IMG/VR virus record: IMGVR_UViG_2651869830_000003
Source of the DNA: a virus
Lineage: Duplodnaviria; Heunggongvirae; Uroviricota; Caudoviricetes
Strand: one strand, 5' to 3'
DNA: 35,782 bases
In this document: piece by piece, positions 6,457-27,265 of the stretch
How the letters are laid out: every line of letters begins with the position of its first letter
How positions within the stretch are numbered: the first letter of the stretch is position 1
Program-made: the position numbers and the translations under genes
The notes under the pieces: generated by a model
The model's database searches: none
What the model was told of the DNA's origin: nothing
Seen by the model: only the letters and a program-made list of their open reading frames with translations

Positions 6457-6526
6457 TGATAATTTAACTCCTCGGAATAGAATGTTATGTTCGTTCTTGA
6501 TAACTGATAATGAGTGATTTAAAAAA

Positions 6527-6552
6527 AGCCATGTTATGTTACTAACATGGCT
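6527..6552. terminator. Bidirectional rho-independent terminator between the convergent A and reverse transcriptase genes.
   Basis: 10-bp perfect stem agccatgtta/taacatggct with a 6-nt loop, A7 tract on one side and T tract on the other. Confidence 0.55.
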
Positions 6553-6560
6553 TTGGGATA

Positions 6561-8108
6561 TTAATTGCTGTGCTCTTTAAAGAATAGATTAACTTCTTCA
6601 GGTGTTATATTGTCATCCATTTTATCAAATTTATCTGTGTCAACGATTTTTGTTTTTCTTAGCAAGGATAATATCTTGGCTTTATTGGGACTCGTTTCTT
6701 TTCCTTGGATCCAGTCAATATTCCATAAATTATTTACAGAAAATGTTTTCTCTTTTGTGAGTTCATCATTTATACGGACGCATAGAGCTGACTTATAAGA
6801 TTTATTCCACTCTAGGTTTATTTTTGCTTGAGTTCGCTGAAACCATATCTCAAGCATTTCTGTATTGGGTTGTTTATCCAGTTTTTTATGGAGTTGTTCT
6901 AGCTTTGTTAATTTTTTTTGGGTGTCATCACCATAAAGAAAACTGAGGAGTTTTGAGAAAATTGCCGTTCCTACTGGGTACGTTGTAGGGTTTTTTGCCA
7001 TGATGCTTGAAATAATACCAAGCATGGCATCAACCTGTTGGCCGTTATCTTTAATTGCCTTTCGCTTAAACAAATTCCTAAGAAAATCATTTAGATATCT
7101 AACGGTTGTTTTCGAGTTTGGATGCTTAAGTGAAAATAAATATATTGAATAGAGCATTTTCTGGAGTGACTTATGTCTTTTTTCTTTGATGTAGTCTTTT
7201 TTGGCTTGTTTCAACGAATGAAGTATGATGTCTTCATATAGTTCAGTTTTTTTTGAGTTTAGATCTAAACCAAAATCGCCCAACACATTGACTAAACATT
7301 TTGATATTATGTCTAAATCATCTTTGCTATTAGAGAAGATCCGGTAATCATCACGGTAGCGTACTACCTTGTAGTTTATTATTTTAAGTTCGTTAGTTTT
7401 TTTTCTTAATTCTATATCGATTTGACCCAAGATAAGCTCAGCAAATGTATCCATCAATGTGCTGCCGAGTGGAATACCATTTGTCTGGTTGTTCATCATC
7501 ATTTGAATGTGGCTGTCAATTAATCCCCCTGGGTTATTTTTGTTTTTTTTCTTCTTAGCATCTTCTTTTGATATGAATACCCATTCAAAACTATGAGTAT
7601 ATATTGATGGGTAGAAGTTTGAGATGTCAGTGCTGAACATGAATTCGTATTCAAGAGCAAGGGCAAGGCTTTTTTGTTCAAAATCTTCCCACCAATTCAT
7701 TACAGACGCAGCAATGTTTGACGAGTTGTCTTTTCTGACGGGGATGCTTGAACATGTAAAAAGATCGTTTGATTCAAAAGATTTGAATTTTTCTGTTATG
7801 ATTTCCCAGGTTGTTGGTGCTGTGATTTTTCTACAGAAGTAGACATAATAAAGGGGATTTATAAGTGTTATCCTACGCCAGCTATATAGACCATCTTTAC
7901 TGAGAAGCACCTCATAATTGATATCTTTACCCATCAGCTCCTTGGCGGTTGGTTCAATTTTAATTTTTTTGTTATGGATAGATGAATTAATATCATTTAA
8001 TAATGTGGTGAAATTAATATAAGCCGGTAATTCTAAGGTTGTGTAGGAGTCATGGCGAAGAAAATATGACAGTGCTTCTTCACTGGTTAGTTCATATACT
8101 TTTTTCAT
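6561..8108 (-). CDS. Reverse transcriptase, 515 aa, single-gene Abi-type (probably Abi-P2 class), with a C-terminal alpha-helical domain of unknown function.
   Basis: RT motifs in the N-terminal half: FSTDISNFYPSIY, GIPLGSTLMDTFAELILG, and YRDD catalytic box at 7347-7358 on the minus strand. Strongly AT-rich. Occupies the P2 tin/old site. Confidence 0.8.
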   Translation of the reverse strand: MKKVYELTSEEALSYFLRHDSYTTLELPAYINFTTLLNDINSSIHNKKIKIEPTAKELMGKDINYEVLLSKDGLYSWRRITLINPLYYVYFCRKITAPTTWEIITEKFKSFESNDLFTCSSIPVRKDNSSNIAASVMNWWEDFEQKSLALALEYEFMFSTDISNFYPSIYTHSFEWVFISKEDAKKKKNKNNPGGLIDSHIQMMMNNQTNGIPLGSTLMDTFAELILGQIDIELRKKTNELKIINYKVVRYRDDYRIFSNSKDDLDIISKCLVNVLGDFGLDLNSKKTELYEDIILHSLKQAKKDYIKEKRHKSLQKMLYSIYLFSLKHPNSKTTVRYLNDFLRNLFKRKAIKDNGQQVDAMLGIISSIMAKNPTTYPVGTAIFSKLLSFLYGDDTQKKLTKLEQLHKKLDKQPNTEMLEIWFQRTQAKINLEWNKSYKSALCVRINDELTKEKTFSVNNLWNIDWIQGKETSPNKAKILSLLRKTKIVDTDKFDKMDDNITPEEVNLFFKEHSN

Positions 8109-8298
8109 GAGGATAATGCTCTTGTTAGGGATGATGTTTTTTTATCATGAAATTGAAGGTATTGCGAGAGGCAGTAGTGCATTTGACTGCGTCTATTTGC
8201 ATGTGTTTTTGATAACGGTTTTTGTAATCAGGATGGAGCGCAGCACTGAGGAGCGGAACATAATGCAACTGCATTAAAACCGACCCATGAAGCGGGCG

Positions 8299-8317
8299 GG
8301 CGAGGCGGGGAAAGCAC
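8299..8317. other. cos site: 19-nt cohesive-end sequence ggcgaggcggggaaagcac.
   Basis: Matches the P2 cohesive-end sequence as I recall it. Lies at the expected place between the tin/old-equivalent island and Q. Confidence 0.55.
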
Positions 8318-8467
8318 TGCGCGCTGGCGGTGGTGCTGATTTTATTTTTTCAGCGTCTCAGCGTCTCAGCGCGTCGTGACGGCGTTTGGATTGTGCGCCG
8401 GGGCGTTGGTGTGTCTGCGGGGTGTTTTGTGCGGTGGTGAGCGTGTGAGGGCGTGATGACGGGGTGT

Positions 8468-8489
8468 AAAAAAGCCGCCCGCAGGCGGC
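8468..8489 (-). terminator. Rho-independent terminator of the P-Q operon.
   Basis: gccgcc-cgca-ggcggc hairpin immediately after the Q stop, followed on the minus strand by a U6 tract. Confidence 0.55.
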
Positions 8490-8494
8490 GATGT

Positions 8495-9529
8495 TCAGCC
8501 GTTGTCAGTGTCCAGTGAGTAGTTTTTAAAGCGGATGACCTCCTGACCGAGCCAGCCGTTTATCTCGCGGATCCTGTCCTGTAACGGGATAAGCTCATTG
8601 CGGACAAAGACCTTTGCCACTTTCTCAATATCACCCAGCGACCCGACGTTCTCCGGCTTGCCGCCCATCAACTGAAAGGGGATGCGGTGCGCGTCCAGCA
8701 GGTCAGCGGCGCTGGCTTTTTTGATATTAAAAAAATCGTCCTTCGTTGCCACTTCACTGAGCGGGATAATTTTAATGCCGTCAGCTTTCCCCTGCGGGGC
8801 ATAGAGAAACAGGTTTTTAAAGTTGTTGCGGCCTTTCGACTTCACCATGTTTTCGCGGAGCATTTCGATATCGTTGCGATCCTGCACGGCATCAGTGACG
8901 TACATGATATATCCGGCATGAGCGCCGTTTTCGTAATACTTGCGGCGGAACAGCGTGGCCGACTCATTCAGCCAGGCAGAGTTAAGGGCGCTGAGATATT
9001 CCGGCAGACCGTACAGCTCCTGATTAATATCCGGCTCCAGCAGGTGAAACACGGAGCCGGGCGCGAAAGGTGTCGGCTCGTTGAAGGACGGCACCCACCA
9101 GTAAACATCCTCCTCCACGCCACGGCGGGTATATTTTGCCGGTGAGGTTTCCAGTCTGATGACCTTACCGGTGGTGCTGTAACGCTTTTCCAGAAACGCA
9201 TTACCGAACACCAGAAAATCCAGCACAAAGCGGCTGAAATCCTGCTGGGAAAGCCACGGATGCGGGATAAATGTTGAGGCCAGAATATTACGTTTGACGT
9301 AAATCGGTGAGCTGTGATGCACGGCAGCACGCAGGCTTTTTGCCAGACCGGTAAAGCTGACCGGTGGTTCATACCATCTGCCGTTACTGATGCACTCGAC
9401 GTAATCCAGAATGTCACGGCGGTCGAGTACCGGTACCGGCTCGCCAAAGGTGAATGCTTCCATTTTCGGGGCGCTGGCGGTCATTTTTTTGGCCGCAGGT
9501 TGCGGTGTTTTCCCTTTTTTCTTGCTCAT
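8495..9529 (-). CDS. Q: Portal protein, 344 aa.
   Basis: Length equals P2 Q. Directly downstream of the terminase gene on the same strand. Confidence 0.9.
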   Translation of the reverse strand: MSKKKGKTPQPAAKKMTASAPKMEAFTFGEPVPVLDRRDILDYVECISNGRWYEPPVSFTGLAKSLRAAVHHSSPIYVKRNILASTFIPHPWLSQQDFSRFVLDFLVFGNAFLEKRYSTTGKVIRLETSPAKYTRRGVEEDVYWWVPSFNEPTPFAPGSVFHLLEPDINQELYGLPEYLSALNSAWLNESATLFRRKYYENGAHAGYIMYVTDAVQDRNDIEMLRENMVKSKGRNNFKNLFLYAPQGKADGIKIIPLSEVATKDDFFNIKKASAADLLDAHRIPFQLMGGKPENVGSLGDIEKVAKVFVRNELIPLQDRIREINGWLGQEVIRFKNYSLDTDNG

Positions 9530-11301
9530 CAGTAAAACTCCAGAATGGTGGATGTCAGCGGGGTGCTGATACCGGCGGTGAGTGGCTCATTTAACAGGGC
9601 GTGCATGGTCGCCCAGGCGAGGTCGGCGTGGCTGGCTTCCTCGCTGCGGCTGGCCTCATACGTGGCGCTGCGTCCGCTGCTGGTCATGGTCTTGCGGATA
9701 GCCATAAACGAGCTGGTGATGTCGGTGGCGCTGACGTCATATTCCAGACAGCCACGGCGGATGACGTCTTTTGCCTTGAGCACCATTGCGGTTTTCATTT
9801 CCGGCGTGTAGCGGATATCACGCGCGGCGGGATAGAACGAGCGCACGAGCTGGAACACGCCGACACCGAGGCCGGTGGCATCAATACCGATGTATTCGAC
9901 GTTGTATTTTTCGGTGAGTTTGCGGATGGATTCCGCCTGAGTGGCAAAGTCCATGCCTTTCCACTGGTGACGCTCAAGTATTCTGAATTTGCCACCGGCC
10001 ACCACCGGCGGTGCCAGCACCACGCATCCGGCACTGTCGCCACGGTGTGACGGGTCGTAACCAATCCATACCGGGCGGGAGCCGAACGGATTGGCGGCAA
10101 ACGGCGCATAGTCTTCCCATTCTTCCAGCGTGTCGACCATGCAGCGTTGCAGCTCCTCGAACGGGAACACCGACGCCTTGTCGTCAACAAATTCACACAT
10201 GAACAGGTTTTTAAAATCGTCGGCGCTGTTTTCACGTTTGAGCTGCTCAATGTCGAACAACGTGCAGCCGCCTTTCAGGGCGTCCTCAATGGTGACAATC
10301 TGCCGCCACTGACCGTCCGCACAGAGAAGCCCACCGGCAAGGGCGTTATGACTGACGTCGATTTCCACGCGTTCAGCGGCGCTGGCGCGGCCCCGGTTGA
10401 ACAGTTCACCCGACCAGAACGGGTAGGCGTCGTGCGCCAGCGTGGACGGGGTGGAGAAATAGGTCGAACGCAGGTGACTCTGTGAGGCCATACCTGATGC
10501 CACCTTACGCAGTACCTGAAAATTCGGGATCCAGAAAATCTCGTCGACGTACAGGTCGCCGTTATGGCTCTGCGCGGTGTTGGAGTTGGTGCCGAGAAAA
10601 ATCAGTTTTGCGCCGTTATTGCCCAGGACAATCGGGTCACCGGTCAGGTCAACGTCAACCAGCCGGGCAAAGGCGATGATGTATTCGCGGAACACATACG
10701 CCTGCGTTTTACTGGCCGACAGAAAAATCTGGTTATGACCGGTTTTCAGGGCGCGCAGCAGCGCCTCGCGGGAAAAATAAAACGTCGCGCCAATCTGGCG
10801 GGATTTCAGGATATCGCGGATGCGGTGCTCAAGCCCGGCGCGATACCAGTGCAACTGATATTCGAAAGACTGCTCAAAGAAAATCTGCTCCAGCTTTTCG
10901 ATGGCCTCGTCACTGAAAAAATTCTTTTTCGGTTTGCGCCGCCCGCCTTTGTTGCGGTTAGCGACGTTCGGATTAAGGTCTGCCTCGTTGCCGGTCTGAC
11001 TGTAACGGTTGACCCGTGCCAGTCGTTCAATCTGGCGTCCGAGCAGGTCAATTTCCTTGAAGTCACCGCCGGTTTTCTGCGGTTTGATGATGAGCTGGGT
11101 CAGCCGCGCTTCCAGACTCATTTCGACACGGCTGATGGGGGCAACGCTGTCCCAGCCGTCGCGCTGTTTCCAGCTCTGCACCGTCGGGCGTTTCATCTGC
11201 AACATGGCGGCAATCTGCGGCACGGAAAATCCCTGCCAGTACAGCAGCGCCGCCTGACGACGCGGGTCGTGTAAAAGAGTGGTGTCTGTGGTGATGGTCA
11301 T
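9529..11301 (-). CDS. P: Terminase large subunit (ATPase/nuclease), 590 aa.
   Basis: ATG at 11301 gives 590 aa as in P2 P (the track start at 11331 is TTG). Divergent from the O operon. Confidence 0.9.
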   Translation of the reverse strand: MTITTDTTLLHDPRRQAALLYWQGFSVPQIAAMLQMKRPTVQSWKQRDGWDSVAPISRVEMSLEARLTQLIIKPQKTGGDFKEIDLLGRQIERLARVNRYSQTGNEADLNPNVANRNKGGRRKPKKNFFSDEAIEKLEQIFFEQSFEYQLHWYRAGLEHRIRDILKSRQIGATFYFSREALLRALKTGHNQIFLSASKTQAYVFREYIIAFARLVDVDLTGDPIVLGNNGAKLIFLGTNSNTAQSHNGDLYVDEIFWIPNFQVLRKVASGMASQSHLRSTYFSTPSTLAHDAYPFWSGELFNRGRASAAERVEIDVSHNALAGGLLCADGQWRQIVTIEDALKGGCTLFDIEQLKRENSADDFKNLFMCEFVDDKASVFPFEELQRCMVDTLEEWEDYAPFAANPFGSRPVWIGYDPSHRGDSAGCVVLAPPVVAGGKFRILERHQWKGMDFATQAESIRKLTEKYNVEYIGIDATGLGVGVFQLVRSFYPAARDIRYTPEMKTAMVLKAKDVIRRGCLEYDVSATDITSSFMAIRKTMTSSGRSATYEASRSEEASHADLAWATMHALLNEPLTAGISTPLTSTILEFY

Positions 11302-11474
11302 GAATACCTCGCCGTGATGAATACACGGCAAGGCTACTGAGTCGCGCCCCGCGATTCGCTAAGGTGCTGTTGTGTCAGTGATAAGCCATCCGGGACTGAT
11401 GGCGGAGGATGCGCATCGTCGGGAAACTGATGCCGACATGTGACTCCTCTAATCACTATTCAGGACTCCTGACA

Positions 11475-12329
11475 ATGGCAAAAAAAGTCTCAAAATTCTT
11501 TCGTATCGGCGTTGAGGGTGACACCTGTGACGGGCGTGTCATCAGTGCGCAGGATATTCAGGAAATGGCCGAAACCTTTGACCCGCGAGTCTATGGTTGC
11601 CGCATTAACCTGGAACATCTGCGCGGCATCCTGCCTGACGGTATTTTTAAGCGTTATGGCGATGTGGTCGAACTGAAGGCCGAAAAGATTGACGATGATT
11701 CGGCGCTGAAAGGCAAATGGGCGCTGTTTGCGAAAATCACCCCGACCGATGACCTTATCGCGATGAACAAGGCCGCGCAGAAGGTCTATACCTCAATGGA
11801 AATTCAGCCGAACTTTGCCAATACCGGCAAATGTTATCTGGTGGGTCTGGCCGTCACCGATGACCCGGCAAGCCTCGGCACGGAATACCTGGAATTCTGC
11901 CGCACGGCAAAACACAACCCCCTGAACCGCTTCAAATTAAGCCCTGAAAACCTGATTTCAGTGGCAACGCCTGTTGAGCTGGAATTTGAAGACCTGCCTG
12001 AAACCGTGTTCACCGCCCTGACCGAAAAGGTGAAATCCATTTTTGGCCGCAAACAGGCCAGCGATGACGCCCGTCTGAATGACGTGCATGAAGCGGTGAC
12101 CGCTGTCGCTGAACATGTGCAGGAAAAACTGAGCGCCACTGAGCAGCGCCTCGCTGAGATGGAAACTGCCTTTTCCGCTCTTAAGCAGGAGGTGACTGAC
12201 AGGGCGGATGAAACCAGCCAGGCATTCACCCGCCTGAAAAACAGTCTCGACAGCACCGAAAGTCTGACCCAGCAGCGCCGCAGCAAGGCCACCGGCGGTG
12301 GCGGTGACGCCCTGATGACGAACTGCTGA
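11475..12329 (+). CDS. O: Capsid scaffolding protein, 284 aa.
   Basis: ATG at 11475 (MAKKVSKF) gives 284 aa as in P2 O. Immediately upstream of the capsid gene. Confidence 0.85.
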   Translation: MAKKVSKFFRIGVEGDTCDGRVISAQDIQEMAETFDPRVYGCRINLEHLRGILPDGIFKRYGDVVELKAEKIDDDSALKGKWALFAKITPTDDLIAMNKAAQKVYTSMEIQPNFANTGKCYLVGLAVTDDPASLGTEYLEFCRTAKHNPLNRFKLSPENLISVATPVELEFEDLPETVFTALTEKVKSIFGRKQASDDARLNDVHEAVTAVAEHVQEKLSATEQRLAEMETAFSALKQEVTDRADETSQAFTRLKNSLDSTESLTQQRRSKATGGGGDALMTNC

Positions 12330-12387
12330 CCGGCGTCAGCCAGTCCGGGCAAACCTTCACGATTAACCCTTAATTTCAGGAAAAACT

Positions 12388-13461
12388 ATGCGCCAGGAAA
12401 CCCGCTTTAAATTTAATGCCTACCTGTCCCGTGTTGCCGAACTGAACGGCATCGACGCCGGTGATGTGTCGAAAAAATTCACCGTTGAACCGTCGGTCAC
12501 CCAGACCCTGATGAACACCATGCAGGAGTCCTCTGATTTTCTGACCCGCATCAACATTGTGCCGGTCAGCGAAATGAAAGGGGAAAAAATTGGTATTGGT
12601 GTCACCGGCTCCATCGCCAGCACCACCGACACCGCCGGTGGCACCGAGCGTCAGCCGAAGGACTTCTCGAAGCTGGCGTCAAACAAGTACGAATGCGACC
12701 AGATTAACTTCGATTTTTATATCCGCTACAAAACGCTTGACCTGTGGGCGCGTTATCAGGATTTCCAGCTCCGTGTCCGTAACGCCATTATCAAACGCCA
12801 GTCCCTTGATTTAATCATGGCCGGTTTTAACGGCGTGAGGCGTGCCGAAACCTCTGACCGCAGCAGTAATCCGATGCTACAGGATGTGGCGGTCGGCTGG
12901 CTGCAGAAATACCGCAATGAAGCACCGGCGCGCGTGATGAGCAAGGTCACTGACGAGGAAGGGCATACCACCTCTGAGGTTATCCGCGTGGGTAAGGGCG
13001 GTGATTATGCCAGCCTTGATGCACTGGTGATGGATGCGACCAACAACCTGATTGAGCCGTGGTATCAGGAAGACCCTGACCTTGTGGTGATTGTGGGGCG
13101 TCAGCTACTGGCGGACAAGTATTTCCCCATCGTTAACAAAGAGCAGGACAACAGCGAAATGCTGGCCGCTGACGTCATCATCAGCCAGAAACGCATCGGT
13201 AACCTGCCGGCGGTACGCGTCCCGTACTTCCCGGCGGATGCGATGCTCATCACGAAGCTGGAAAACCTGTCCATCTACTACATGGATGACAGCCATCGCC
13301 GCGTGATTGAGGAAAACCCGAAACTCGACCGCGTGGAGAACTACGAGTCAATGAACATTGATTACGTGGTGGAAGACTACGCCGCCGGTTGCCTGGTGGA
13401 AAAAATTAAGGTCGGTGATTTCTCCACACCGGCCAGGGCGACCGCAGAGCCGGGAGCGTAA
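12388..13461 (+). CDS. N: Major capsid protein, 357 aa.
   Basis: Length and position match P2 N. Confidence 0.9.
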   Translation: MRQETRFKFNAYLSRVAELNGIDAGDVSKKFTVEPSVTQTLMNTMQESSDFLTRINIVPVSEMKGEKIGIGVTGSIASTTDTAGGTERQPKDFSKLASNKYECDQINFDFYIRYKTLDLWARYQDFQLRVRNAIIKRQSLDLIMAGFNGVRRAETSDRSSNPMLQDVAVGWLQKYRNEAPARVMSKVTDEEGHTTSEVIRVGKGGDYASLDALVMDATNNLIEPWYQEDPDLVVIVGRQLLADKYFPIVNKEQDNSEMLAADVIISQKRIGNLPAVRVPYFPADAMLITKLENLSIYYMDDSHRRVIEENPKLDRVENYESMNIDYVVEDYAAGCLVEKIKVGDFSTPARATAEPGA

Positions 13462-13464
13462 CCG

Positions 13465-14208: not shown

Positions 14209-14307
14209 CAACCGAATGCGCCCCGCGCCAGGGCGGCACGCCGGTCAGTGAGGGTGAATCACCTGACACTGCACCGGCGTCCACCGCCCGACTTTTCAGA
14301 GGTAGTC

Positions 14308-15020: not shown

Positions 15021-15023
15021 CGC

Positions 15024-15305: not shown

Positions 15306-15802
15306 TGCCGGTAATTAACACACATCAGAATATCGCCGCCTTTCTCGACATGCTGGCCGTGTCCGAAGGGACGGCGAATCATCCGCTGACGAAAAACCGG
15401 GGCTATGACGTGATAGTCACCGGACTGGACGGGAAGCCGGAAATTTTCACCGACTACAGTGACCACCCGTTCGCGTATGGCCGACCGGCGAAGGTGTTTA
15501 ACCGTCGCGGTGAAAAATCCACGGCCTCCGGTCGCTATCAGCAGCTTTACCTGTTCTGGCCGCATTACCGCAAACAGCTTGCCCTGCCGGATTTCAGTCC
15601 GTTGTCACAGGACAGACTCGCCATTCAGTTGATCCGCGAACGCGGTGCACTGGATGACATCCGGGAGGGACGCATTGAGCGCGCCATTTCACGCTGTCGC
15701 AATATCTGGGCGTCCCTGCCGGGTGCCGGTTACGGTCAGCGTGAGCATTCACTGGAAAAACTGGTCACCGTCTGGCGTACCGCTGGCGGCGTACCGGCTT
15801 AA
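15305..15802 (+). CDS. K: Endolysin (lysozyme family), 165 aa.
   Basis: Length and position match P2 K. Conserved LAVSEGT region typical of phage lysozymes. Confidence 0.8.
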   Translation: MPVINTHQNIAAFLDMLAVSEGTANHPLTKNRGYDVIVTGLDGKPEIFTDYSDHPFAYGRPAKVFNRRGEKSTASGRYQQLYLFWPHYRKQLALPDFSPLSQDRLAIQLIRERGALDDIREGRIERAISRCRNIWASLPGAGYGQREHSLEKLVTVWRTAGGVPA

Positions 15803-15816
15803 ACGGAGTAAACACC

Positions 15817-17230: not shown

Positions 17231-17675
17231 GTTTAAGCGTTTTGAAGACCGGCTGACCGGACTTATTGAATCGCTGTCACCGTCAGGGCGTCGGCGACTG
17301 AGCGCCGAACTGGCGAAACGTCTGCGGCAGAGTCAGCAGCGCCGGGTGATGGCACAGAAAGCCCCGGACGGCACACCCTACGCACCACGCCAGCAGCAGA
17401 GCGCCAGAAAAAAGACCGGTCGCGTTAAGCGAAAAATGTTTGCGAAACTTATCACCAGTCGTTTTTTGCATATCCGCGCCAGCCCGGAACAGGCAGCAAT
17501 GGAATTTTACGGCGGGAAGTCACCGAAAATCGCCAGTGTGCATCAGTTTGGTCTGCCGGAAGAAACCCGGAAAGACGGTAAGAAAATTGATTATCCGGCG
17601 CGTCCTCTGCTCGGCTTTACCGGTGAGGATGTGCAGATGATTGAAGAGATTATTCTGGCTCACCTGAATCGCTAG
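17223..17675 (+). CDS. S: Tail completion protein S, 150 aa.
   Basis: Length and position match P2 S. Confidence 0.8.
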   Translation: MNEFKRFEDRLTGLIESLSPSGRRRLSAELAKRLRQSQQRRVMAQKAPDGTPYAPRQQQSARKKTGRVKRKMFAKLITSRFLHIRASPEQAAMEFYGGKSPKIASVHQFGLPEETRKDGKKIDYPARPLLGFTGEDVQMIEEIILAHLNR

Positions 17676-17751
17676 CTTTATTGATCTGAGAATATAAGAA
17701 TGAAATTATTTGATTTAGTATGATTTATTTTGAATCTTTACGTTAATAAAT

Positions 17752-17777
17752 AAAAGGCCAGTTATTGGCCTTTTATC
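17752..17777. terminator. Bidirectional rho-independent terminator between S and the convergent accessory gene.
   Basis: Stem aaaaggcca/tggcctttt with loop gttat. A tract on one side and T tract on the other. Confidence 0.55.
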
Positions 17778-17778
17778 A

Positions 17779-18852
17779 TTACTTGCCATTTTTCAATGCG
17801 TTGATTAACGATGCTATTTGTTCAATACCATCAAATGTAGATGGTATCTTATCATCGGATAGCATGATGTTTGAAAATACTACGTCTTCAAATTTTGAAA
17901 GCGCTTCCGGATTGTTTTTCCTTATCTCTGAGGAATAGTCGCTATAACTCTGAATGAACTGACAAAGGCTCTTTCTGAGTTCTATTTGCATAATCTGAGT
18001 TCGTAACGATATATGATTTATCAGTACAACTCTAAAGTAATACATGAAAATCAATGTAACTGATGCAAAAGGTAGTGCTGACATAAAATATGTGGCAGCA
18101 TTTGTCGTTTCGAGAGTTGGTAATTTATGCATTCCATAGTATATCAGCGGGGAGGGAATGATTATAGCCAAGATGATAAGAATTATTCTTGATAGCATGA
18201 TTTCACTTTCTTTCTTTTTGCCAAGTGAATTAAAGCCATCAAACAATCCAACAAAATTAAATGCGACCTCATACCCTTTTAATGACTCTTTAATTGACTC
18301 TATTTTGGCATGTTGCTCCTTTAAGAAGGAGTCGCACTTTTCGAAAAATTGACGCCCTTCGTTTAAACTATCAATGTATTTTTTATATGTGTCAACATTG
18401 CTGGAGCTTAAAACTTCTTTAACCATTGCTAATGGCAGTTCTCTAAGAGAAAAGTCTATCTGTGCTCTGCTCCGCTCATCGAATTCATTATAGTTATACA
18501 GAGCAAAATCCTTGATGGTTCTTAGTGGTGAAAAGTGAGACTCTATTTCCGGAGAGAGAATGCTTGGTTCAATGATAAATCTAAAAAAGCAAGTGAATAT
18601 AAGGTTGATGCTGTTGTTATCTTCTCCCTTTTCTCTTAAGAAACTTTTAAAGGTGTCGCCAATCATAGCAATGTTGTACTGGGATTTTTTGTCCCAATCT
18701 TCAGGGTTTTCGGAAATGAAGTTTATTGCTTGAGCAATTATTTTGTTTCTGTTTGATTCAAAGTTTGTGCCGGGAGTCAGCGTGTTCAAAAAGACCAGAT
18801 AATCTTTGAACAATTCTTTCATTGTTTCTGACGAGAAAAAGTAAGTACTCAT
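17779..18852 (-). CDS. Hypothetical membrane protein with two predicted transmembrane helices in its C-terminal third; AT-rich accessory (moron) gene at the P2 orf30 site. Start uncertain: ATG at 18852 preferred over GTG at 18948.
   Basis: Strong AT-rich compositional break inside a GC-rich tail operon. Opposite strand to neighbours. Hydrophobic segments ILSRIILIILAIIIPSPLIYYG and ATYFMSALPFASVTLIFMYYFRVVLI. Confidence 0.6.
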   Translation of the reverse strand: MSTYFFSSETMKELFKDYLVFLNTLTPGTNFESNRNKIIAQAINFISENPEDWDKKSQYNIAMIGDTFKSFLREKGEDNNSINLIFTCFFRFIIEPSILSPEIESHFSPLRTIKDFALYNYNEFDERSRAQIDFSLRELPLAMVKEVLSSSNVDTYKKYIDSLNEGRQFFEKCDSFLKEQHAKIESIKESLKGYEVAFNFVGLFDGFNSLGKKKESEIMLSRIILIILAIIIPSPLIYYGMHKLPTLETTNAATYFMSALPFASVTLIFMYYFRVVLINHISLRTQIMQIELRKSLCQFIQSYSDYSSEIRKNNPEALSKFEDVVFSNIMLSDDKIPSTFDGIEQIASLINALKNGK

Positions 18853-18938
18853 AATGGATTTTGTTGTCCCTTGTTGTTCTGTGCACCAGAAATCGTGGTG
18901 TGATTTACTTCGAGATTGTACAGAATCATTATTATCGA

Positions 18939-19568
18939 ATGAATGCACAATACAATGAAATTCTTCGCTTTATACGCAATATGATTCGCACTGGCATTAT
19001 CGTCGAAACCGACCTTAATGCCGGTCGCTGCCGTGTGCAGACCGGCGGCATGTGCACCGACTGGCTTCAGTGGCTGACCCATCGCGCTGGGCGTTCGCGC
19101 ACATGGTGGGCACCTTCCGTGGGGGAACAGGTGCTGATTCTGGCCGTGGGCGGTGAACTCGACACGGCGTTCGTTCTGCCGGGGATTTATTCCGGCGATA
19201 ACCCAGCGCCGTCTGCGTCGTCTGATGCCCTGCATATCCGTTTCCCTGACGGGGCGGTGATTGAGTATGAACCCGAAACCAGTGCACTCACGGTAAGCGG
19301 AATTAAAACGGCCAGCGTGACGGCTTCTGATTCTGTTACTGCCACGGTGCCGGTGGTCATGGTGAAAGCATCAACCCGCGTCACCCTGGACACACCGGAG
19401 GTGGTCTGCACCAACAGGCTGATTACCGGCACGCTGGAAGTGCAGAAGGGCGGGACGATGCGCGGCAACATTGAACACACCGGCGGTGAACTCTCATCAA
19501 ACGGTAAGGTACTGCATACCCATAAACACCCCGGCGACAGCGGCGGCACAACCGGGAGCCCTCTATGA
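18939..19568 (+). CDS. V: Baseplate spike/assembly protein V, 209 aa.
   Basis: ATG at 18939 (MNAQYNEIL). Length close to P2 V (211 aa). First gene of the V-W-J-I-H-G operon. Confidence 0.85.
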   Translation: MNAQYNEILRFIRNMIRTGIIVETDLNAGRCRVQTGGMCTDWLQWLTHRAGRSRTWWAPSVGEQVLILAVGGELDTAFVLPGIYSGDNPAPSASSDALHIRFPDGAVIEYEPETSALTVSGIKTASVTASDSVTATVPVVMVKASTRVTLDTPEVVCTNRLITGTLEVQKGGTMRGNIEHTGGELSSNGKVLHTHKHPGDSGGTTGSPL

Positions 19569-19912
19569 CAGCGCGTTATCTCGGAATGAATCGCAGTGAT
19601 GGCCTGACTGTCACTGACCTTGAGCATATCAGCCAGAGTATCGGCGATATCCTGCGCACACCGGTCGGCTCACGGGTGATGCGTCGTGATTACGGCTCGT
19701 TGCTGGCGTCAATGATTGACCAGCCGCAGACCCCGGCGCTTGAGTTGCAGATTAAGGTCGCCTGTTACATGGCGGTGCTGAAATGGGAACCCCGCGTCAC
19801 CCTGTCATCCGTCACCACTGAGCGCAGTTTTGACGGGCGAATGACAGTTACGTTAACCGGCCAGCACAACGACACCGGCCAGCCACTTTCGTTAACCATC
19901 CCTGTGAGTTGA
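19565..19912 (+). CDS. W: Baseplate protein W (gp25-like), 115 aa.
   Basis: Length and position match P2 W. Confidence 0.85.
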   Translation: MTARYLGMNRSDGLTVTDLEHISQSIGDILRTPVGSRVMRRDYGSLLASMIDQPQTPALELQIKVACYMAVLKWEPRVTLSSVTTERSFDGRMTVTLTGQHNDTGQPLSLTIPVS

Positions 19913-19916
19913 AACC

Positions 19917-20825: not shown

Positions 20826-21348
20826 TTCGCGACTGCTGCCGACCGGCTCATCACCGCTTGAAGTTGCCGCCGCAAAAGCCTGTGCGGAAATTGAAAAAAC
20901 ACCGGTCAGTATTCGTGAGCTGTGGAACCCGGACACCTGTCCGGCAAATCTGCTGCCGTGGCTGGCGTGGGCGTTTTCGGTCGACAGGTGGGATGAAAAG
21001 TGGCCGGAAGCGACAAAACGCGCCGTTATCCGCGATGCGTATTTCATCCACTGTCATAAAGGCACAATAGGTGCAATCCGGCGTGTGGTGGAGCCGCTCG
21101 GCTATCTCATCAACGTGACGGAGTGGTGGGAAAACAGTGACCCGCCCGGCACCTTCCGGCTTGATATTGGTGTACTGGAAAGCGGCATCACAGAGGCAAT
21201 GTATCAGGAAATGGAACGGCTGATTGCTGATGCCAAACCTGCAAGCCGTCACCTTATTGGCCTGAACATTACCCGGGACATTCCCGGCTACCTGTTCGCC
21301 GGTGGTGTGGCTTACGACGGCGATGTAATTACGGTTTACCCCGGATAA
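20818..21348 (+). CDS. I: Baseplate protein I, 176 aa.
   Basis: Length and position match P2 I. Confidence 0.85.
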   Translation: MSDSRLLPTGSSPLEVAAAKACAEIEKTPVSIRELWNPDTCPANLLPWLAWAFSVDRWDEKWPEATKRAVIRDAYFIHCHKGTIGAIRRVVEPLGYLINVTEWWENSDPPGTFRLDIGVLESGITEAMYQEMERLIADAKPASRHLIGLNITRDIPGYLFAGGVAYDGDVITVYPG

Positions 21349-21358
21349 GTGAGGAATA

Positions 21359-23404
21359 ATGAGCACAAAATTCAGAACCGTTATCACCACTGCCGGTGCA
21401 GCAAAGCTGGCAGCGGCAACCGCACCGGGAGGGCGGAAGGTCAACATTACCACGATGGCCGTCGGGGATGGCGGTGGTAAATTGCCTGTCCCGGATGCCG
21501 GACAGACCGGACTTATCCATGAAGTCTGGCGACATGCGCTGAACAAAATCAGCCAGGACAAACGAAACAGTAATTATATTATCGCAGAGCTGGTTATTCC
21601 GCCGGAGGTGGGCGGTTTCTGGATGCGTGAGCTTGGCCTGTACGATGATGCGGGAACATTAATTGCCGTGGCGAACATGGCCGAAAGTTATAAGCCAGCT
21701 CTCGCCGAAGGCTCAGGGCGTTCGCAGACCTGTCGCATGGTCATCATCGTCAGCAGTGTGGCCTCAGTGGAGCTGACCATTGACACCACAACAGTGATGG
21801 CGACGCAGGATTACGTTGATGACAAAATTGCAGAGCACGAACAGTCACGACGTCACCCGGACGCCTCGCTGACCGCCAAAGGTTTTACTCAGTTAAGCAG
21901 TGCGACCAACAGCACGTCTGAAACACTGGCCGCAACGCCGAAAGCGGTAAAGGCCGCGTATGACCTTGCTAACGGGAAATATACTGCGCAGGATGCCACC
22001 ACAGCGCGAAAAGGTCTTGTCCAGCTCAGTAGTGCCACCAACAGCACGTCTGAAACGCTCGCTGCAACACCAAAAGCCGTTAAGACGGTAATGGATGAAA
22101 CGAACAAGAAAGCGCCATTAAACAGCCCTGCACTGACCGGAACGCCAACGACGCCAACTGCGCGACAGGGAACGAATAATACTCAGATCGCAAACACGGC
22201 TTTCGTTATGGCCGCGATTGCCGCCCTTGTAGACTCGTCGCCTGACGCACTGAATACGCTGAACGAGCTGGCGGCGGCGCTGGGCAATGACCCGAATTTT
22301 GCTACCACCATGACTAATGCGCTTGCGGGTAAGCAACCGAAAGATGCTACCCTGACGGCGCTGGCGGGGCTTGCTACTGCGGCAGACAGGTTTCCGTATT
22401 TTACGGGGAATGATGTTGCCAGCCTGGCAACCCTGACAAAAGTCGGGCGGGATATTCTGGCTAAATCGACCGTTGCCGCCGTTATCGAATATCTCGGTTT
22501 ACAGGAAACGGTAAACCGAGCCGGGAACGCCGTGCAAAAAAATGGCGATACCTTGTCCGGCGGGCTTACTTTTGAAAACGACTCAATCCTTGCCTGGATT
22601 CGAAATACTGACTGGGCAAAGATTGGATTTAAAAATGATGCCGACAGCGATACTGATTCATATATGTGGTTTGAAACAGGTGACAACGGCAATGAATATT
22701 TCAAATGGAGAAGTCGCCAGAGCACCACAACAAAAGACCTGATGAATCTTAAATGGGATGCTCTGTATGTTCTTGTTAAAGCCCTTTTCAGCAGTGAAGT
22801 AAAAATATCTACAGTCAATGCGCTGAGGATATTTAATTCATCTTTTGGTGCTATTTTTCGCCGTTCTGAAGAAAACCTGTATATCATTCCTACACGAGAA
22901 AATGAGGGTGAAAATGGAGATATTGGGCCATTAAGGCCATTCGGCATCAACTTAAGAACAGGAGTTGTGTCTGTTGGTAATGGTGCCAGGATTGATGGCG
23001 GGCTGGCACTTGGCACGAATAACGCGTTGGGTGGGAACTCTATTGTTCTTGGTGATAACGACACCGGATTTAAACAAAATGGCGATGGTAATCTGGATGT
23101 TTATGCTAATAACGTCCATGTTATGCGCTTTGTTTCCGGAAGCATTCAAAGTAATAAGACCATAAATATTACGGGGCGTGTTAATCCCTCGGATTACGGT
23201 AACTTTGATTCCCGCTATGTGAGAGATATCAGACTTGGCACACGTGTTGTCCAGACCATGCAGAAAGGGGTGATGTATGAGAAAGCAGGGCACGTAATTA
23301 CCGGGCTTGGTATTGTCGGTGAAGTCGATGGTGATGACCCCGCAGTATTCAGGCCAATACAAAAATACATCAATGGCACATGGTATAACGTCGCACAGGT
23401 GTAA
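21359..23404 (+). CDS. H: Tail fiber protein H, 681 aa.
   Basis: Position matches P2 H. Conserved N-terminal region, then repeated QLSSATNSTSETLAATPKAVK motifs and a lower-GC C-terminal part. Confidence 0.85.
   Translation: MSTKFRTVITTAGAAKLAAATAPGGRKVNITTMAVGDGGGKLPVPDAGQTGLIHEVWRHALNKISQDKRNSNYIIAELVIPPEVGGFWMRELGLYDDAGTLIAVANMAESYKPALAEGSGRSQTCRMVIIVSSVASVELTIDTTTVMATQDYVDDKIAEHEQSRRHPDASLTAKGFTQLSSATNSTSETLAATPKAVKAAYDLANGKYTAQDATTARKGLVQLSSATNSTSETLAATPKAVKTVMDETNKKAPLNSPALTGTPTTPTARQGTNNTQIANTAFVMAAIAALVDSSPDALNTLNELAAALGNDPNFATTMTNALAGKQPKDATLTALAGLATAADRFPYFTGNDVASLATLTKVGRDILAKSTVAAVIEYLGLQETVNRAGNAVQKNGDTLSGGLTFENDSILAWIRNTDWAKIGFKNDADSDTDSYMWFETGDNGNEYFKWRSRQSTTTKDLMNLKWDALYVLVKALFSSEVKISTVNALRIFNSSFGAIFRRSEENLYIIPTRENEGENGDIGPLRPFGINLRTGVVSVGNGARIDGGLALGTNNALGGNSIVLGDNDTGFKQNGDGNLDVYANNVHVMRFVSGSIQSNKTINITGRVNPSDYGNFDSRYVRDIRLGTRVVQTMQKGVMYEKAGHVITGLGIVGEVDGDDPAVFRPIQKYINGTWYNVAQV
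21890..22084 (+). repeat. Two copies of a 63-nt imperfect direct repeat (21890-21952 and 22022-22084) encoding the tail-fiber motif QLSSATNSTSETLAATPKAVK.
   Basis: Repeat seen at both nucleotide and protein level within H. Confidence 0.7.
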
Positions 23405-23407
23405 TTT

Positions 23408-23935
23408 ATGCAGCATTTAAAAAATATTACTGCGGGTAATCCAAAAACTGTTGCCCAATATCAACTGACAAAAAATTTTGATGTTATCTGGTTATGGTCC
23501 GAAGAGGGAAAAAACTGGTATGAGGAAGTAAGTAATTTTCAGGAAGACACGATAAAGATTGTTTACGACGAGAATAATATAATTGTCGGCATCACCAGAG
23601 ATGCTTCAACGCTTAACCCTGAAGGTTTCAACGTTGTCGAGGTTCCTGATATTACCTCCAACCGACGTGCTGATGACTCAGGTAAATGGATGTTTAAGGA
23701 TGGTGCCGTGATTAAGCGGATTTATACGGCAGATGAACAGGAGCAACAGGCAGAATCACAAAAGGCAGCTTTACTTTCCGAAGCTGAATCCGTGATTTTG
23801 CCGCTGGAACGCGCTGTCAGGCTGAATATGGCGACGGATGAGGAACGCAGCCGACTGGAAGCATGGGAACGCTACAGCGTTCTGGTCAGTCGTGTGGATC
23901 CTGCAAATCCCGAATGGCCGGAAATGCCGCAATAA
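23408..23935 (+). CDS. G: Tail fiber assembly chaperone G, 175 aa.
   Basis: Length and position match P2 G, immediately after H. Confidence 0.8.
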
Positions 23936-24218
23936 GTTGTATGATCTCTGGTGTGAGCTTACATATCTATAGCACAGAGTAAAGCCTAATCTGACAGTCC
24001 GCTATGTGCCAGGAGCGGAAGTAGCAAACCAGATTTTACTGAAGCTTGAGCAGAGATACCACCAACTGATGCCTATCAGTAATGGGGCTCTTGATGATTC
24101 AAATAAAAAAGATTAAATTGATTAAGATTATTCTTACTTGATTAATTGTTTTGCGCATGGGCTTGGAAAACCATGAATCAGATCTTCACTAGATAAAACA
24201 ACGAACTATGGAGGAAGC

Positions 24219-25310
24219 GTGGGCGGCGAAACTAAGAATATTGATGAGATTGCAGGTATCATTTCCAGTAGAATTTTTGATGAGTTAGGCTGGAAAACCC
24301 AAAATACAACGGATATAAGTTGGGACTGTTGTTTGAGATCTCATCTAAACGCTAAACAACTTTTATCTGAAAACCCAAAAAAAACTCATCCTACGGATGT
24401 AGTCTTCAAATATAAAGATCCTTATTCAGATATAACTCAGTATATACAAACAGATTTAAAATCTTATTGTGCCAGCACGCTTGACGGTACAAAATCAATA
24501 TTGAACACTGTACGAAGTTTATCACAACAGGTAGCTTGCGCGCCAAGAAGTCCTGAGTGGCGGCGTCTATTTGTTGACAGCACAAATGAGAAATATCAAG
24601 TTAACGGCCTACTTTTTATATATAATCATGACAATAAATATGACTCTGATTTAATTGAGAAATTAAATGGAGCAGCCACAGCAAGTTATGATTTTCCAGA
24701 GAACTCTGTGATTGCCGTTTTTGACCCAACTATGATCAGATTTTTACTAGATGTTACAGAACACATCGAGACTAGAAGAGGAATTACTGACAAAGTAACA
24801 CAAGAAACAAATATGTTATGGCAAAAAATTCCTGAGATAGAGAACTGTACATATTTTTACCCTGACAAACATAATAAAATAGCAACGAAAGGGAAAATCC
24901 TTCCAGCCACAATTGAAATGATAACATCTGGGATGATTTTTTACTCATATGAACACGAATATATTAGAAATGATGGTGGCGATAGAATAAGAAATAAAAT
25001 ATTGAATATATTCTGGAAGGAAGAGGTTGATTCCAGTAACCACTTTATATTTCTTTTAGAGTATATATTTAACTATCAATTACTCAATCAATTTGACAAA
25101 ATATTTGTTATAACTCCGTTCTCATCACACTCAAGCATTCATTTGCAATCCGCCATTAATGATTACATAGGAATATATTCTTTCACTCAATCTCATATAG
25201 AAACGTTAAAGGAAAAAATAGTATCCATTCCTTTTGTTAATCAAAAGCTATCTATATTTGAGTACCAGGTTGCCAGCAAGCAGGTGAATAGAAAATGTCA
25301 CTTTTCATAA
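24219..25310 (+). CDS. Hypothetical protein, 363 aa, first gene of an AT-rich three-gene accessory operon; GTG start. No recognisable domain; a weak PD-(D/E)xK-like pattern sits near the N-terminus.
   Basis: Strong SD ggagga 5-10 nt upstream of GTG at 24219. AT-rich. In the P2 Z/fun slot between G and FI. Confidence 0.7.
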   Translation: MGGETKNIDEIAGIISSRIFDELGWKTQNTTDISWDCCLRSHLNAKQLLSENPKKTHPTDVVFKYKDPYSDITQYIQTDLKSYCASTLDGTKSILNTVRSLSQQVACAPRSPEWRRLFVDSTNEKYQVNGLLFIYNHDNKYDSDLIEKLNGAATASYDFPENSVIAVFDPTMIRFLLDVTEHIETRRGITDKVTQETNMLWQKIPEIENCTYFYPDKHNKIATKGKILPATIEMITSGMIFYSYEHEYIRNDGGDRIRNKILNIFWKEEVDSSNHFIFLLEYIFNYQLLNQFDKIFVITPFSSHSSIHLQSAINDYIGIYSFTQSHIETLKEKIVSIPFVNQKLSIFEYQVASKQVNRKCHFS

Positions 25311-25320
25311 GGAGTATGAC

Positions 25321-26568
25321 ATGAATAAATATCAAGCTACGTTGTTTTCAAACGAAAGTGACATTTATACCGCCCTCCACTCTAACAGTGCAAAAATCAC
25401 AGATGTTACATTAAGGAAAATCGCCTTCAATAGAGGGATAATTTTCCCATCTAACTTATCAAAAGAGGTATTGATAGAAAAATTATCAGACCTGCCATTT
25501 TCATATAATCACATCAGAGAAGTACAAGATAAACTGGCAACCAAACCCAGCCAAGACGTCTTCTCAGTAAAACGTATATATGAAGAATTTGATATAGAGA
25601 AACTCTATGACGTTGTAAACAAAGTGAAAGAAAATAGACCCAAGTTGCTAGGGCATGAGAAAATTGATCATTACTCAGGCTTGCAAACCTATCATATATC
25701 TATTGATTATACTGAGTTTGATTTTAGAAGGGGTAAGTTTCAGCAGAAAAAATTGTACAGTGGGAGTATAGTTTTTATAGTAAAAAAAGGATATGTTTCA
25801 GTAAGATATAACTATACGCCACGCATTTCAGAAATTCTCAAGCAAATAATTGATACATATTCATCAACAGTTTGTAACAACATAGTTGTCAACGAAATAG
25901 ATTTATCAAGTATCGTCGATACAGATCTTAGGAATATTTTTGCTGTTCATCTTTATGATTTTGATGGAAATTATAAAAAAACAGGACTTGAATATGCTGG
26001 TCTTGAAAAGGTTAGAGTAAGCAGAATAAAAACATCTCTGGATATTAATGGAGATAATCTCGAAGGAAATAATAACGAAGAAACACAAGAGTTATTAAAC
26101 AAGATTTCACCTTCTACAGATAACGAAAATGATGATGACATTAATAATCAGGAAATGGCATCTGACGATGATGAAAACCTAACTTTTAACATTAACAATG
26201 CCGCGTATGATGGCCTATCATTAGTGAACGCACCTCAAATTAAGGAACTGTGCCGTGATGGGTTTTATCGAAGCTTAATTCGATGGAAGTCATTTTCCTC
26301 AGTAGTTAAGAATCATACTATAACTTTTGAACTTAGTTTCGATGATAAATATCTTGGGAAAAATATAAAATTCAGAGCGTTATACAAAGAAAGCAACTCT
26401 GCATCCGCAGAGAGAGAAAAACTCAGTGACGCAGACTTTGATCAAGTCATGAAACAATTAGAAGATAAAATATTTTTGATTAATGACTTTATTATCGAAG
26501 AGCATACCAAGCGATACCCAGTAACGAAAGCTATGTCTTGCGAGACTTTGAATCAGGAGGCTGGATGA
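25321..26568 (+). CDS. Hypothetical protein, 415 aa, second gene of the accessory operon; contains a roughly 45-aa acidic low-complexity linker.
   Basis: aaggag SD 7 nt upstream of ATG at 25321. Same strand and composition as the flanking cassette genes. Confidence 0.7.
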   Translation: MNKYQATLFSNESDIYTALHSNSAKITDVTLRKIAFNRGIIFPSNLSKEVLIEKLSDLPFSYNHIREVQDKLATKPSQDVFSVKRIYEEFDIEKLYDVVNKVKENRPKLLGHEKIDHYSGLQTYHISIDYTEFDFRRGKFQQKKLYSGSIVFIVKKGYVSVRYNYTPRISEILKQIIDTYSSTVCNNIVVNEIDLSSIVDTDLRNIFAVHLYDFDGNYKKTGLEYAGLEKVRVSRIKTSLDINGDNLEGNNNEETQELLNKISPSTDNENDDDINNQEMASDDDENLTFNINNAAYDGLSLVNAPQIKELCRDGFYRSLIRWKSFSSVVKNHTITFELSFDDKYLGKNIKFRALYKESNSASAEREKLSDADFDQVMKQLEDKIFLINDFIIEEHTKRYPVTKAMSCETLNQEAG

Positions 26569-27221
26569 TGATAAAGGTAAAAATTTATAAAGCAGAAAAG
26601 GATATAACTAAAAGTGAGTTATTACATAAAGTAAATGACAACCTCTATGATGAAGATAAAGGATATGGTTTTCAAATCATTAATAACTCTGAAGTGCTTA
26701 AACTAAGATTTACCATGAGAAGCATTAGCAAGCAAAGCTTAGAATATGCTAATGGCGAGCGTTCAGAGGTTGAAATAGCAACTTACTTAAATGTGGACTT
26801 TGGCGTCAGACAAGGGAAAAAAATCATACTATATGCCACTAATCCTCCATTAAGTATGAAAGTGCCTTATACTATGGTGCAAAAACTATTTGGTGAAGAT
26901 AGTGGCTTGAGACCAGTAGAATTTGATCTGAGAAAAATTGTAAATGGTCTTTCTGAGGGCTTTGACATCAAGATAAAATCCATGTCTCTATCTAATATCT
27001 CTGTTGATCCTTTTACTTTAGCAAAGACAAAAATAGTAAGCTCAAAGAATCTCCAAGAAATTTATCAGAATAAATACATGAATAGTTCGGCCGTTTTTGA
27101 TTCCGTACATTTCTTCGTTAACGGAATTGAAACGGAATTATCTAGGACGGGTAGATTCCGTGTGAGAGAGAGTCAGCTTCCAACACTTTTATCCATCTTA
27201 GAAACTCTCAGAATTTTGTGA
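26565..27221 (+). CDS. Hypothetical protein, 218 aa, third gene of the accessory operon.
   Basis: ATGA stop/start overlap with the upstream gene (translational coupling). ggagg SD. The track start at 26538 is trimmed to the ATG at 26565. Confidence 0.65.
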   Translation: MMIKVKIYKAEKDITKSELLHKVNDNLYDEDKGYGFQIINNSEVLKLRFTMRSISKQSLEYANGERSEVEIATYLNVDFGVRQGKKIILYATNPPLSMKVPYTMVQKLFGEDSGLRPVEFDLRKIVNGLSEGFDIKIKSMSLSNISVDPFTLAKTKIVSSKNLQEIYQNKYMNSSAVFDSVHFFVNGIETELSRTGRFRVRESQLPTLLSILETLRIL

Positions 27222-27238
27222 AATATATAAGGAACTCA

Positions 27239-27265
27239 GGCCTACTTCGTCAGTAGGCCCCTTTT
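27239..27265 (+). terminator. Rho-independent terminator of the three-gene accessory operon.
   Basis: Perfect 8-bp stem ggcctact/agtaggcc with loop tcgtc, followed by ccttttcc, 18 nt after the stop at 27221. Confidence 0.55.

Follow-up and report, generated by a model that had tools for sequence, protein, structure and literature searches.

Two questions are raised by the viral record IMGVR_UViG_2651869830_000003 of IMG/VR, whose 35,782 nucleotides are the window analysed here: whether the three accessory (moron) regions of a phage P2-like prophage have been filled by repeated, independent exchange of cargo on an otherwise conserved genome, and whether such a prophage serves its host as a multi-system defence island. 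The window comprises a whole Peduovirus (P2-type) prophage, inserted at the cyaR/trhP attachment site, and short stretches of host DNA on either side. Comparison with its relatives demonstrates directly that cargo is exchanged independently on a conserved backbone, and we hold with high confidence that this is a P2-type prophage with the essential genes of P2 and with three slots carrying independently swapped lysogenic-conversion cargo. This is the documented behaviour of the P2 moron regions and already known (PMC6823313; PMC9122126; PMC13586616); the window is a textbook example of defence-system turnover that adds one more P2-like prophage and leaves understanding unchanged. Two of its parts are worth following, namely a membrane-protein family in the slot between genes S and V, and a pool of cassettes, bounded by sites named L and R, that is common to lambdoid prophages.

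P2 has three moron regions (PMC6823313), a subject that papers citing Christie and Calendar (2016) also credit to that work. The A-Q hotspot and its defence content have been catalogued in 18,150 loci (Rousset 2022, PMC9122126), and a survey of 1,511 P2 prophages found rapid turnover, further hotspots within tail genes, systems in several hotspots in 10% of defence-carrying P2, and non-homologous defences in 99% of pairs (Moura de Sousa 2026, PMC13586616). The old/tin and Z/fun hotspots are recovered by iLund4u (bioRxiv 10.1101/2024.10.15.618418).

Conserved backbone and exchanged cargo

The original prediction, made from the letters of the window, described a backbone almost gene for gene that of P2. 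A tblastn search of the 42 annotated P2 proteins against the window agrees with it: 37 are present, in P2 order and at 88-100% identity, and the only ones not found are orf30, fun(Z), orf91, tin, and old, which in P2 itself fill the three classical slots. At the DNA level the backbone shares 96-97% identity with P2, Wphi, L-413C, and pro147, and alignment places cos between A and Q as in the P2 gene order. The slots of the window match the P2 moron regions (TO orf91-tin-old, orf30, and Z/fun) in their three positions and in their A/cos, S/V, and G/FI flanks, and likewise hold non-essential, AT-rich cargo with transcription separate from that of the late operons; they differ in that unrelated genes stand in for all five cargo genes of P2. 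As predicted, the occupants are a reverse transcriptase (RT; AbiP2 match), a membrane protein (two hydropathy peaks for transmembrane helices), and a three-gene operon (Hp1-3).

Island limits were set by alignment with P2 DNA and with four related prophages (Table 1). At the A-cos slot, homology to P2, MDK9L1, and WP4-W18-ESBL-09 (WP4) stops at 6423-6427 and restarts at 8261-8270, with the left breakpoint inside the last ~30 nt of gene A; at the S-V slot, homology to P2 stops at 17681 and restarts at 18975, and the island takes in the region of the pV promoter and the initial 36 nt of gene V. In the replication gene A, the last ~10 codons (6400-6456) differ from P2 and are the same in Combat13F7, and the first 12 codons of the baseplate gene V (18939-18974) also differ from P2, their AT-rich version being common to the window and WP4. 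Since these changed codons of A and V travel with the neighbouring cargo, recombination breakpoints lie inside essential genes.

The islands had been called compositionally foreign, with sliding-window GC and codon usage proposed as the check, and both measures bear this out. Within the island limits the GC fraction is 0.33-0.35, vs about 0.55 elsewhere. The GC fraction falls to 0.33-0.36 at ~6500-8250, 0.34-0.36 at ~17750-19000, and 0.30-0.36 at ~24000-27250, vs 0.53-0.63 in the backbone, and GC at third codon positions (GC3) is 0.34 in the RT gene, 0.38 in the S-V gene, and 0.29-0.31 in Hp1-3, vs 0.55-0.72 in the backbone genes A, Q, P, N, S, V, J, FI, T, and D. Terminators belonging to each island were also found at all three; the signal is strong for the RT hairpin and for the S-V hairpin (-16.2 kcal/mol, z -5.5 on the minus strand; -14.3 kcal/mol, z -3.8 on the plus strand) and weaker, of moderate strength, for the three-gene operon (z -2.9).

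For counts of exchange, 5,426 complete E. coli genomes were searched. The A/Q flanks occur in 2,194 of them and the same RT in 10; the S/V flanks occur in 1,586, with the same cargo in 60; and the G/FI flanks occur in 2,186, with the same cassette at that site in a single genome. No E. coli genome carries more than one of the three cargoes, as judged with a 22-kb query spanning all slots. Close relatives with a 96-98% identical backbone have other cargo at each site: MDK9L1 shares the G-FI cassette at 100% identity but has a DEAD/DEAH helicase at A-cos and nothing at S-V; Combat13F7 carries the same RT and different S-V and G-FI cargo; and WP4 carries the same S-V gene, a retron and an FRG-domain protein at A-cos, and Shedu at G-FI. 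Close relatives thus do not all have identical islands, a result that goes against vertical inheritance and supports the repeated, independent exchange that had been proposed. The exact combination in the window is unique among the genomes searched, as expected under such turnover; three occupied slots are not in themselves unusual, being found in P2 itself and in WP4.

Exchange at A-cos and S-V would proceed by replacement of whole segments through homologous recombination between P2 relatives, with breakpoints inside conserved flanks (the 3' end of A, near cos, just past the S stop codon, and in the first 36 nt of V), whereas at G-FI a discrete cassette would be swapped between the L and R sites. 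The inclusion of the pV region and of V codons in the swapped S-V segment argues for homologous replacement between P2 relatives and not for the insertion of a gene on its own. A Yersinia enterocolitica P2-like prophage (locus L214, 1532-2832), with a PIN-domain gene and small partner open reading frames (ORFs) between V and W, suggests that some P2-like phages have an additional cargo slot.

Table 1. Positions of the islands, their genes, and associated sites in the window
Feature	Position	Strand	Remarks
A-cos island	6428-8269 (1842 bp)		in place of P2 orf91-tin-old; GC 0.33-0.35
S-V island	17682-18974 (1293 bp)		in place of P2 orf30
G-FI island	24020-27330		in place of P2 fun(Z); limits from P2 DNA alignment
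Abi-P2 reverse transcriptase, 515 aa (by sequence match)	6561-8108	-	PADLOC AbiP2, PDB 7r08, Pfam RVT_1
Intrinsic terminator of the RT gene	6525-6554	-	12-bp stem and U7; -16.2 kcal/mol, z -6.85
357-aa all-helical protein, two predicted transmembrane helices, PHROG 9373	17779-18852	-	hydropathy; PHROG 5.6e-134
Bidirectional terminator hairpin between S and the S-V cargo gene	17750-17776		U-runs on both sides
Hp1, 363 aa, PD-(D/E)xK nuclease domain of GAPS4 type	24219-25310	+	PADLOC Hp1, PF26115
Hp2, 415 aa, acidic disordered insert 244-290	25321-26568	+	PADLOC Hp2, PHROG 6531
Hp3, 218 aa	26565-27221	+	PADLOC Hp3; same coding sequence called by RefSeq in MDK9L1 and LD39-1
Terminator-like hairpin after Hp3, within the cassette	27239-27260	+	-17.1 kcal/mol, z -2.85, followed by CCUUUUCC
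L site, left boundary of the G-FI cassette	23997-24020	+	GTCCGCTATGTGCCAGGAGCGGAA
R site, right boundary of the G-FI cassette	27330-27353	+	GTCCGCTCTTCGCTCAAAGCAGAC
cos	8299-8317	+	aligns with P2 cosL 1-19 and cosR 33575-33593; right limit of the A-cos slot
attL	493-519	+	27-bp core, exact match to the P2 attP core (L001:24356-24382)
attR	34250-34276	+	second exact copy of the 27-bp P2 att core; overlaps the cyaR 3' end

L and R sites around the G-FI cassette

L and R are 24-bp palindromic sites in direct orientation, and homology stops at both in every context. At the L edge, homology to P2, Combat13F7, and WP4 stops at 24019-24020 and homology to a copy in a Rac-like prophage starts at 23997; at the R edge, the Rac-like homology stops at 27354 and P2 homology restarts at 27331. 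In P2, L (15334-15357) and R (17433-17456) lie around fun(Z), and both sites persist in P2 and other relatives, each with different cargo of its own between them. The segment 23997-27354 is found in about ten genomes, in Rac-like lambdoid prophages, at 99.8-99.9% identity and with unrelated flanks, and in one annotated example it lies between a DUF977 gene and DUF1971/DUF1367/DUF1364/DUF1133 genes. A 96.8% identical copy lies directly after IS3 in a region of E. coli TD225-C4 resembling an integrative and conjugative element (locus L012, 5786-10999), where a coding sequence for a 200-aa 'site-specific integrase' lies ~40 bp downstream of R. Because the same sites bound cassettes of lambdoid prophages, cargo also crosses phage families. 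TD225-C4 keeps ~15 bp of P2-like flank upstream of L, and in E. coli 30COLEC a Rac-borne copy of the cassette has an ISApl1 insertion.

A scan of IMG/VR for the L motif returned at least 120 contigs, and the figures for units running from L to R rest on the matches listed. Among these, P2 gene G lies upstream of L in 35 contigs, and in the others the left flank is of lambdoid type and variable sequence comes after it; there are at least 80-88 L..R units of 0.5-7.5 kb with at least 52-55 cargo types; R and L share a strand in 86 of 94 cases; R is followed by another L after 40-42 bp at 22 of 28 tandem junctions; and two of the cargo types are found with P2 flanks as well as with lambdoid ones. 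Cargo ORFs match, among others, PADLOC models for CBASS cyclases, E1-E2, PD-T7-1, PD-T7-5, PDC-S33, and RT_UG17. The site consensus is GTCCGCT-yTGTGCCAnn-AGCGGA for L and GTCCGCT-cTTCGCTCaa-AGCrGAC for R. Besides the sites at 23997 and 27330, the window has no L/R-like site, at the A-cos and S-V slots included, other than matches with 2-3 mismatches at chance level.

We tentatively propose that the G-FI cargo belongs to a large pool of integron-like temperate-phage cassettes that are bounded by L and R, rich in defence genes, arranged head to tail, shared between P2-like and lambdoid phages, and moved by a recombinase of their own. If true, this would supply a missing mechanism for the exchange of defence genes between unrelated mobile elements, which the 2026 study in Nucleic Acids Research (NAR) left open; boundary sites shared by the G-FI slot and the lambdoid early region would offer defence genes a concrete route between unrelated phages.

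The sites themselves are prior art according to a review summary, in which inverted repeats on either side of fun allow site-specific recombination (Nilsson, Karlsson & Haggard-Ljungquist 2004, via PMC8987985). L and R of P2 flank fun(Z) as those of the window flank the three-gene cassette; relative to the 2004 work as summarised there, the present pattern also includes at least 52 cargo types, R-L tandem arrays, and a variable site in the lambdoid early region, and this breadth may not have been reported previously.

A distinctly possible alternative, to which we give appreciable weight, is that G-FI exchange needs no special sites, L and R being short conserved stretches used in relaxed homologous recombination of the Red/RecT type, which, acting on 24 bp of identical sequence, could produce this pattern as well. 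The proposal of dedicated cassettes is weakened by the lack of a dedicated recombinase beside L and R, no recombinase gene being consistently adjacent, and the alternative gains from the weakness of both hairpins and from a C-A mismatch in the R stem of 25 of 103 variants. It accounts less readily for loops (TGTGCCA in L, TCGCTC in R) and a polarity conserved over 52-55 unrelated cargoes and several flank types, for a tandem R-L spacing fixed at 40-42 bp, and for homology that breaks at the outer site edge in three contexts; fun exchange, moreover, is credited to site-specific recombination at inverted repeats in the review citing Nilsson 2004 (PMC8987985). A role of L and R as terminators or stable RNA hairpins was rejected, the folding energies being no better than those of shuffled sequences (z +0.9 and +0.7). 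As the hairpins are unstable but the loop sequences conserved, recognition by a protein fits better than structure alone, and under the cassette proposal we infer an enzyme acting at L and R.

The comparison with integrons is one of form. Like integron cassettes, the L/R units are promoter-independent, have imperfect palindromic sites, occur in head-to-tail arrays, and are enriched in accessory functions; they differ in having two sites each, where an integron cassette has one attC. To our knowledge, L and R bear no resemblance to the integron attC consensus. No IntI-type integrase is annotated beside the cassette in three annotated contexts (P2, Rac-like, and TD225-C4; attI was not searched for), and in the Rac-like context the prophage integrase lies about 7 kb away. 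Membership of the L/R cassettes in the integrons was rejected, there being no IntI annotated in these contexts and no attC.

Predicted functions of the cargo

The view of the prophage as a multi-system defence island stands for two of the slots, which hold Abi-P2 and an operon of a known three-gene type, and is left without annotation at the third, where the S-V protein has no defence match and a defensive role is presumed; a defence phenotype for the window's copies is likewise a matter of expectation from their relatives.

The RT aligns with the PADLOC AbiP2 model at 1.3e-161 (residues 1-513 on profile positions 4-487 of 489), with PDB 7r08 at 1128 bits (residues 1-510), and with Pfam RVT_1 at 2.8e-10, and has the catalytic YxDD box as YRDD (...VVRYRDDYRIF...). 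Judged by its sequence, it is the known protein Abi-P2, a single-gene system near-identical to PDB 7R08. It shares with the P2-EC30 RT (UG/Abi RT class) the sequence, the cos-adjacent locus, and the single-gene organization, with no notable difference. The Abi-P2/P2-EC30 RT is said to exclude T5. Abi-P2 is an abortive-infection RT that makes protein-primed, untemplated DNA (published work on PDB 7R08), and an RT in the cos-adjacent locus of P2 is the subject, by its title, of a paper cited in PMC9122126 (Odegrip et al. 2006). The window's copy would act in the same way, as a single-gene abortive-infection system based on protein-primed, untemplated DNA.

The G-FI operon consists of three adjacent, co-oriented genes, with a 10-nt gap between Hp1 and Hp2 and an ATGA overlap of the Hp3 start with the Hp2 stop. 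Each protein has its own PADLOC match (Hp1 5e-41, Hp2 7.5e-11, and Hp3 4.2e-11), and the PHROG families of the operon match over full length, Hp2 matching PHROG 6531 at 5e-27. Going by the model names, we read Hp1-3 as the three-gene hypothetical-protein system (3HP) found in the P2 A-Q hotspot and protective against P1 (Rousset 2022, PMC9122126). The two share three co-oriented genes of matching sizes, a match of each protein to its own model, and a P2-like carrier; they differ in slot, G-FI here and A-Q in 3HP, and in the divergence of the window's proteins. Searches of Hp1-3 against a local Pfam copy without PF26115 gave only noise at E up to 10.

PF26115 (PDDEXK_GAPS4) is recorded in precomputed annotations on a protein 100% identical to Hp1 (P0121) and on all 70 homologues, and no substitution of residues H57, P58, D60, or D79-L80-K81 occurs among 21 sequences, which extend down to 26% identity. 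Given this family and the invariant catalytic residues, Hp1 is very probably a nuclease effector. In GAPS4, two proteins form an a2b2 DNase that DNA breaks activate (Mahata et al., bioRxiv 10.1101/2025.09.07.674715); Hp1 resembles it in carrying PF26115 and in the N-terminal placement of the catalytic H..D and xK, and differs in its motif, HPxD...DxK vs the published HGxD...SxK. The three-gene layout is kept in every homologue examined, including those of Vibrio, Pseudomonas, and Leclercia, so the operon is related to GAPS4 and not a member of it. The AlphaFold2 (AF2) model of Hp2 has a predicted local distance difference test (pLDDT) score of 76, and its best Foldseek match, the CENP-N/Chl4/Iml3 kinetochore fold (E 3e-5, TM-score at most 0.38), is a suggestive but weak hint of DNA binding. 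The acidic insert of Hp2, 47 residues long, varies among homologues.

Several points tell against assigning the operon to these known systems: Hp2 is covered by its model only over residues 8-213 of 415, the N-terminal half; as a 3HP the operon is divergent, the Hp2 and Hp3 models matching at about 1e-11 only; and GAPS4 has two genes or one fused gene, where the window's system has three. By analogy with GAPS4, Hp2 and Hp3 would restrain the Hp1 nuclease until a phage cue, for example DNA ends, frees it, whereupon DNA would be degraded and the infection aborted.

The S-V protein was originally given as 389 aa from a GTG-initiated ORF; read from the first ATG (18852), it has 357 aa. Hydrophobic helices are predicted at about 214-242 and 255-282 (Kyte-Doolittle peaks above 1.6 in windows starting at 214-224 and 259-260), and the AF2 model (pLDDT 80) is all-helical, with long helices spanning both stretches. 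The most conserved part of the protein is at residues ~261-342, after the transmembrane helices. Its 348 homologues are all labelled 'hypothetical' and come mostly from Enterobacterales; two homologues lie in small integrative or recombinase-rich islands, one of these, outside P2-like phages, being 1 kb from a putAbiC gene, among resolvases. Kinship with Orf30 of P2 was rejected (hhalign probability 0.2%), and a Pfam search at E up to 10 gave noise only.

The S-V slot was surveyed in 81 loci, comprising the P2-like loci of IMG/VR with S at least 97% identical and the window and P2 as references. It is empty (66 bp) in 57, holds an orf30-type gene in 13, a PHROG 9373 gene in 9 (the window included), and a 268-aa ORF in 2, and every cargo in it lies on the minus strand with a GC fraction of 0.34. 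In P2-like prophages of Citrobacter, Pantoea, and Yersinia this slot likewise contains homologues, 36-50% identical and again in opposite orientation. The gene seems to be a long-standing accessory of the P2 lineage that P2 relatives exchange by homologous recombination, and not a fresh foreign capture.

Anchored at the inner membrane, the S-V protein would be an effector of superinfection exclusion or abortive infection, a role we infer without proof, and the two-helix PHROG 9373 family is possibly a new single-gene exclusion system. The alternative that the cargo is not mainly anti-phage, the S-V protein in particular serving lysis timing, envelope modification, or virulence or fitness conversion, seems to us somewhat doubtful yet deserving of a place in the account. 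What speaks for it, and against a defensive role, is that the protein matches nothing in PADLOC, Pfam, or NCBIfam (defence models included) and that neither its sequence nor its fold has a specific match in PDB, and that the gene stands right after the lysis and tail-completion genes and is kept in that slot across genera, which makes a role in the phage's own biology possible; P2 hotspots are also known to hold partition systems and a cytolethal distending toxin (PMC9122126). It fits less well with the absence of the gene from 70% of close relatives, which marks it as dispensable, with an orientation opposite to the late operons and a terminator of its own, as in the known exclusion genes of P2, with the homologue near putAbiC among resolvases, and with the recognised defence families in the other two slots. 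The membrane-protein family is widespread and tied to the S-V slot, a position that has received little attention in published surveys of defence hotspots. A reading of the islands as ancient components of the P2 lineage, inherited vertically, AT-rich by function and never exchanged, is very unlikely overall and already refuted for A-cos and G-FI: the diverged S-V homologues in other genera do suggest long residence, but relatives with nearly identical backbones have other cargo or none, the S-V site is mostly empty where S is conserved, a prophage of unrelated type has the G-FI cassette at 99.9% identity, and no E. coli genome searched has two of the three cargoes.

Prophage ends and mosaic patches outside the slots

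The exact 27-bp P2 att core occurs twice in the window, as attL and attR. The host small RNA gene CyaR/RyeE (34253-34338, minus strand; Rfam 100.7 bits) overlaps attR, so that the att core of the prophage reconstitutes the 3' end of cyaR, and trhP lies beyond it at 34421-35782. CyaR was the only match in an Rfam scan of the whole window, which gave no RT-associated noncoding RNA and no family for the L/R sites.

With the att core counted once, the length of the phage genome is 33,757 bp vs 33,593 bp in P2, and the summed cargo is 6.45 kb vs 6.31 kb, although all of the cargo differs; these near-equal lengths are consistent with a packaging-size constraint.

In a global alignment, the tail-fibre protein H keeps ~99% identity with its P2 counterpart as far as residue ~470 and drops to ~50% thereafter. 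The divergence is confined to the C-terminal ~200 aa (22770-23404), where GC falls to 0.39-0.47, and is a swap of the receptor-binding domain that forms a fourth mosaic region adjoining the G-FI slot. The neighbouring chaperone gene G (23408-23935) is 91% identical to P2. The orf81 homologue (3383-3679) is 88% identical to P2 Orf81, with neighbours at 98-100%, and possibly marks a small patch of mosaicism within the early region.

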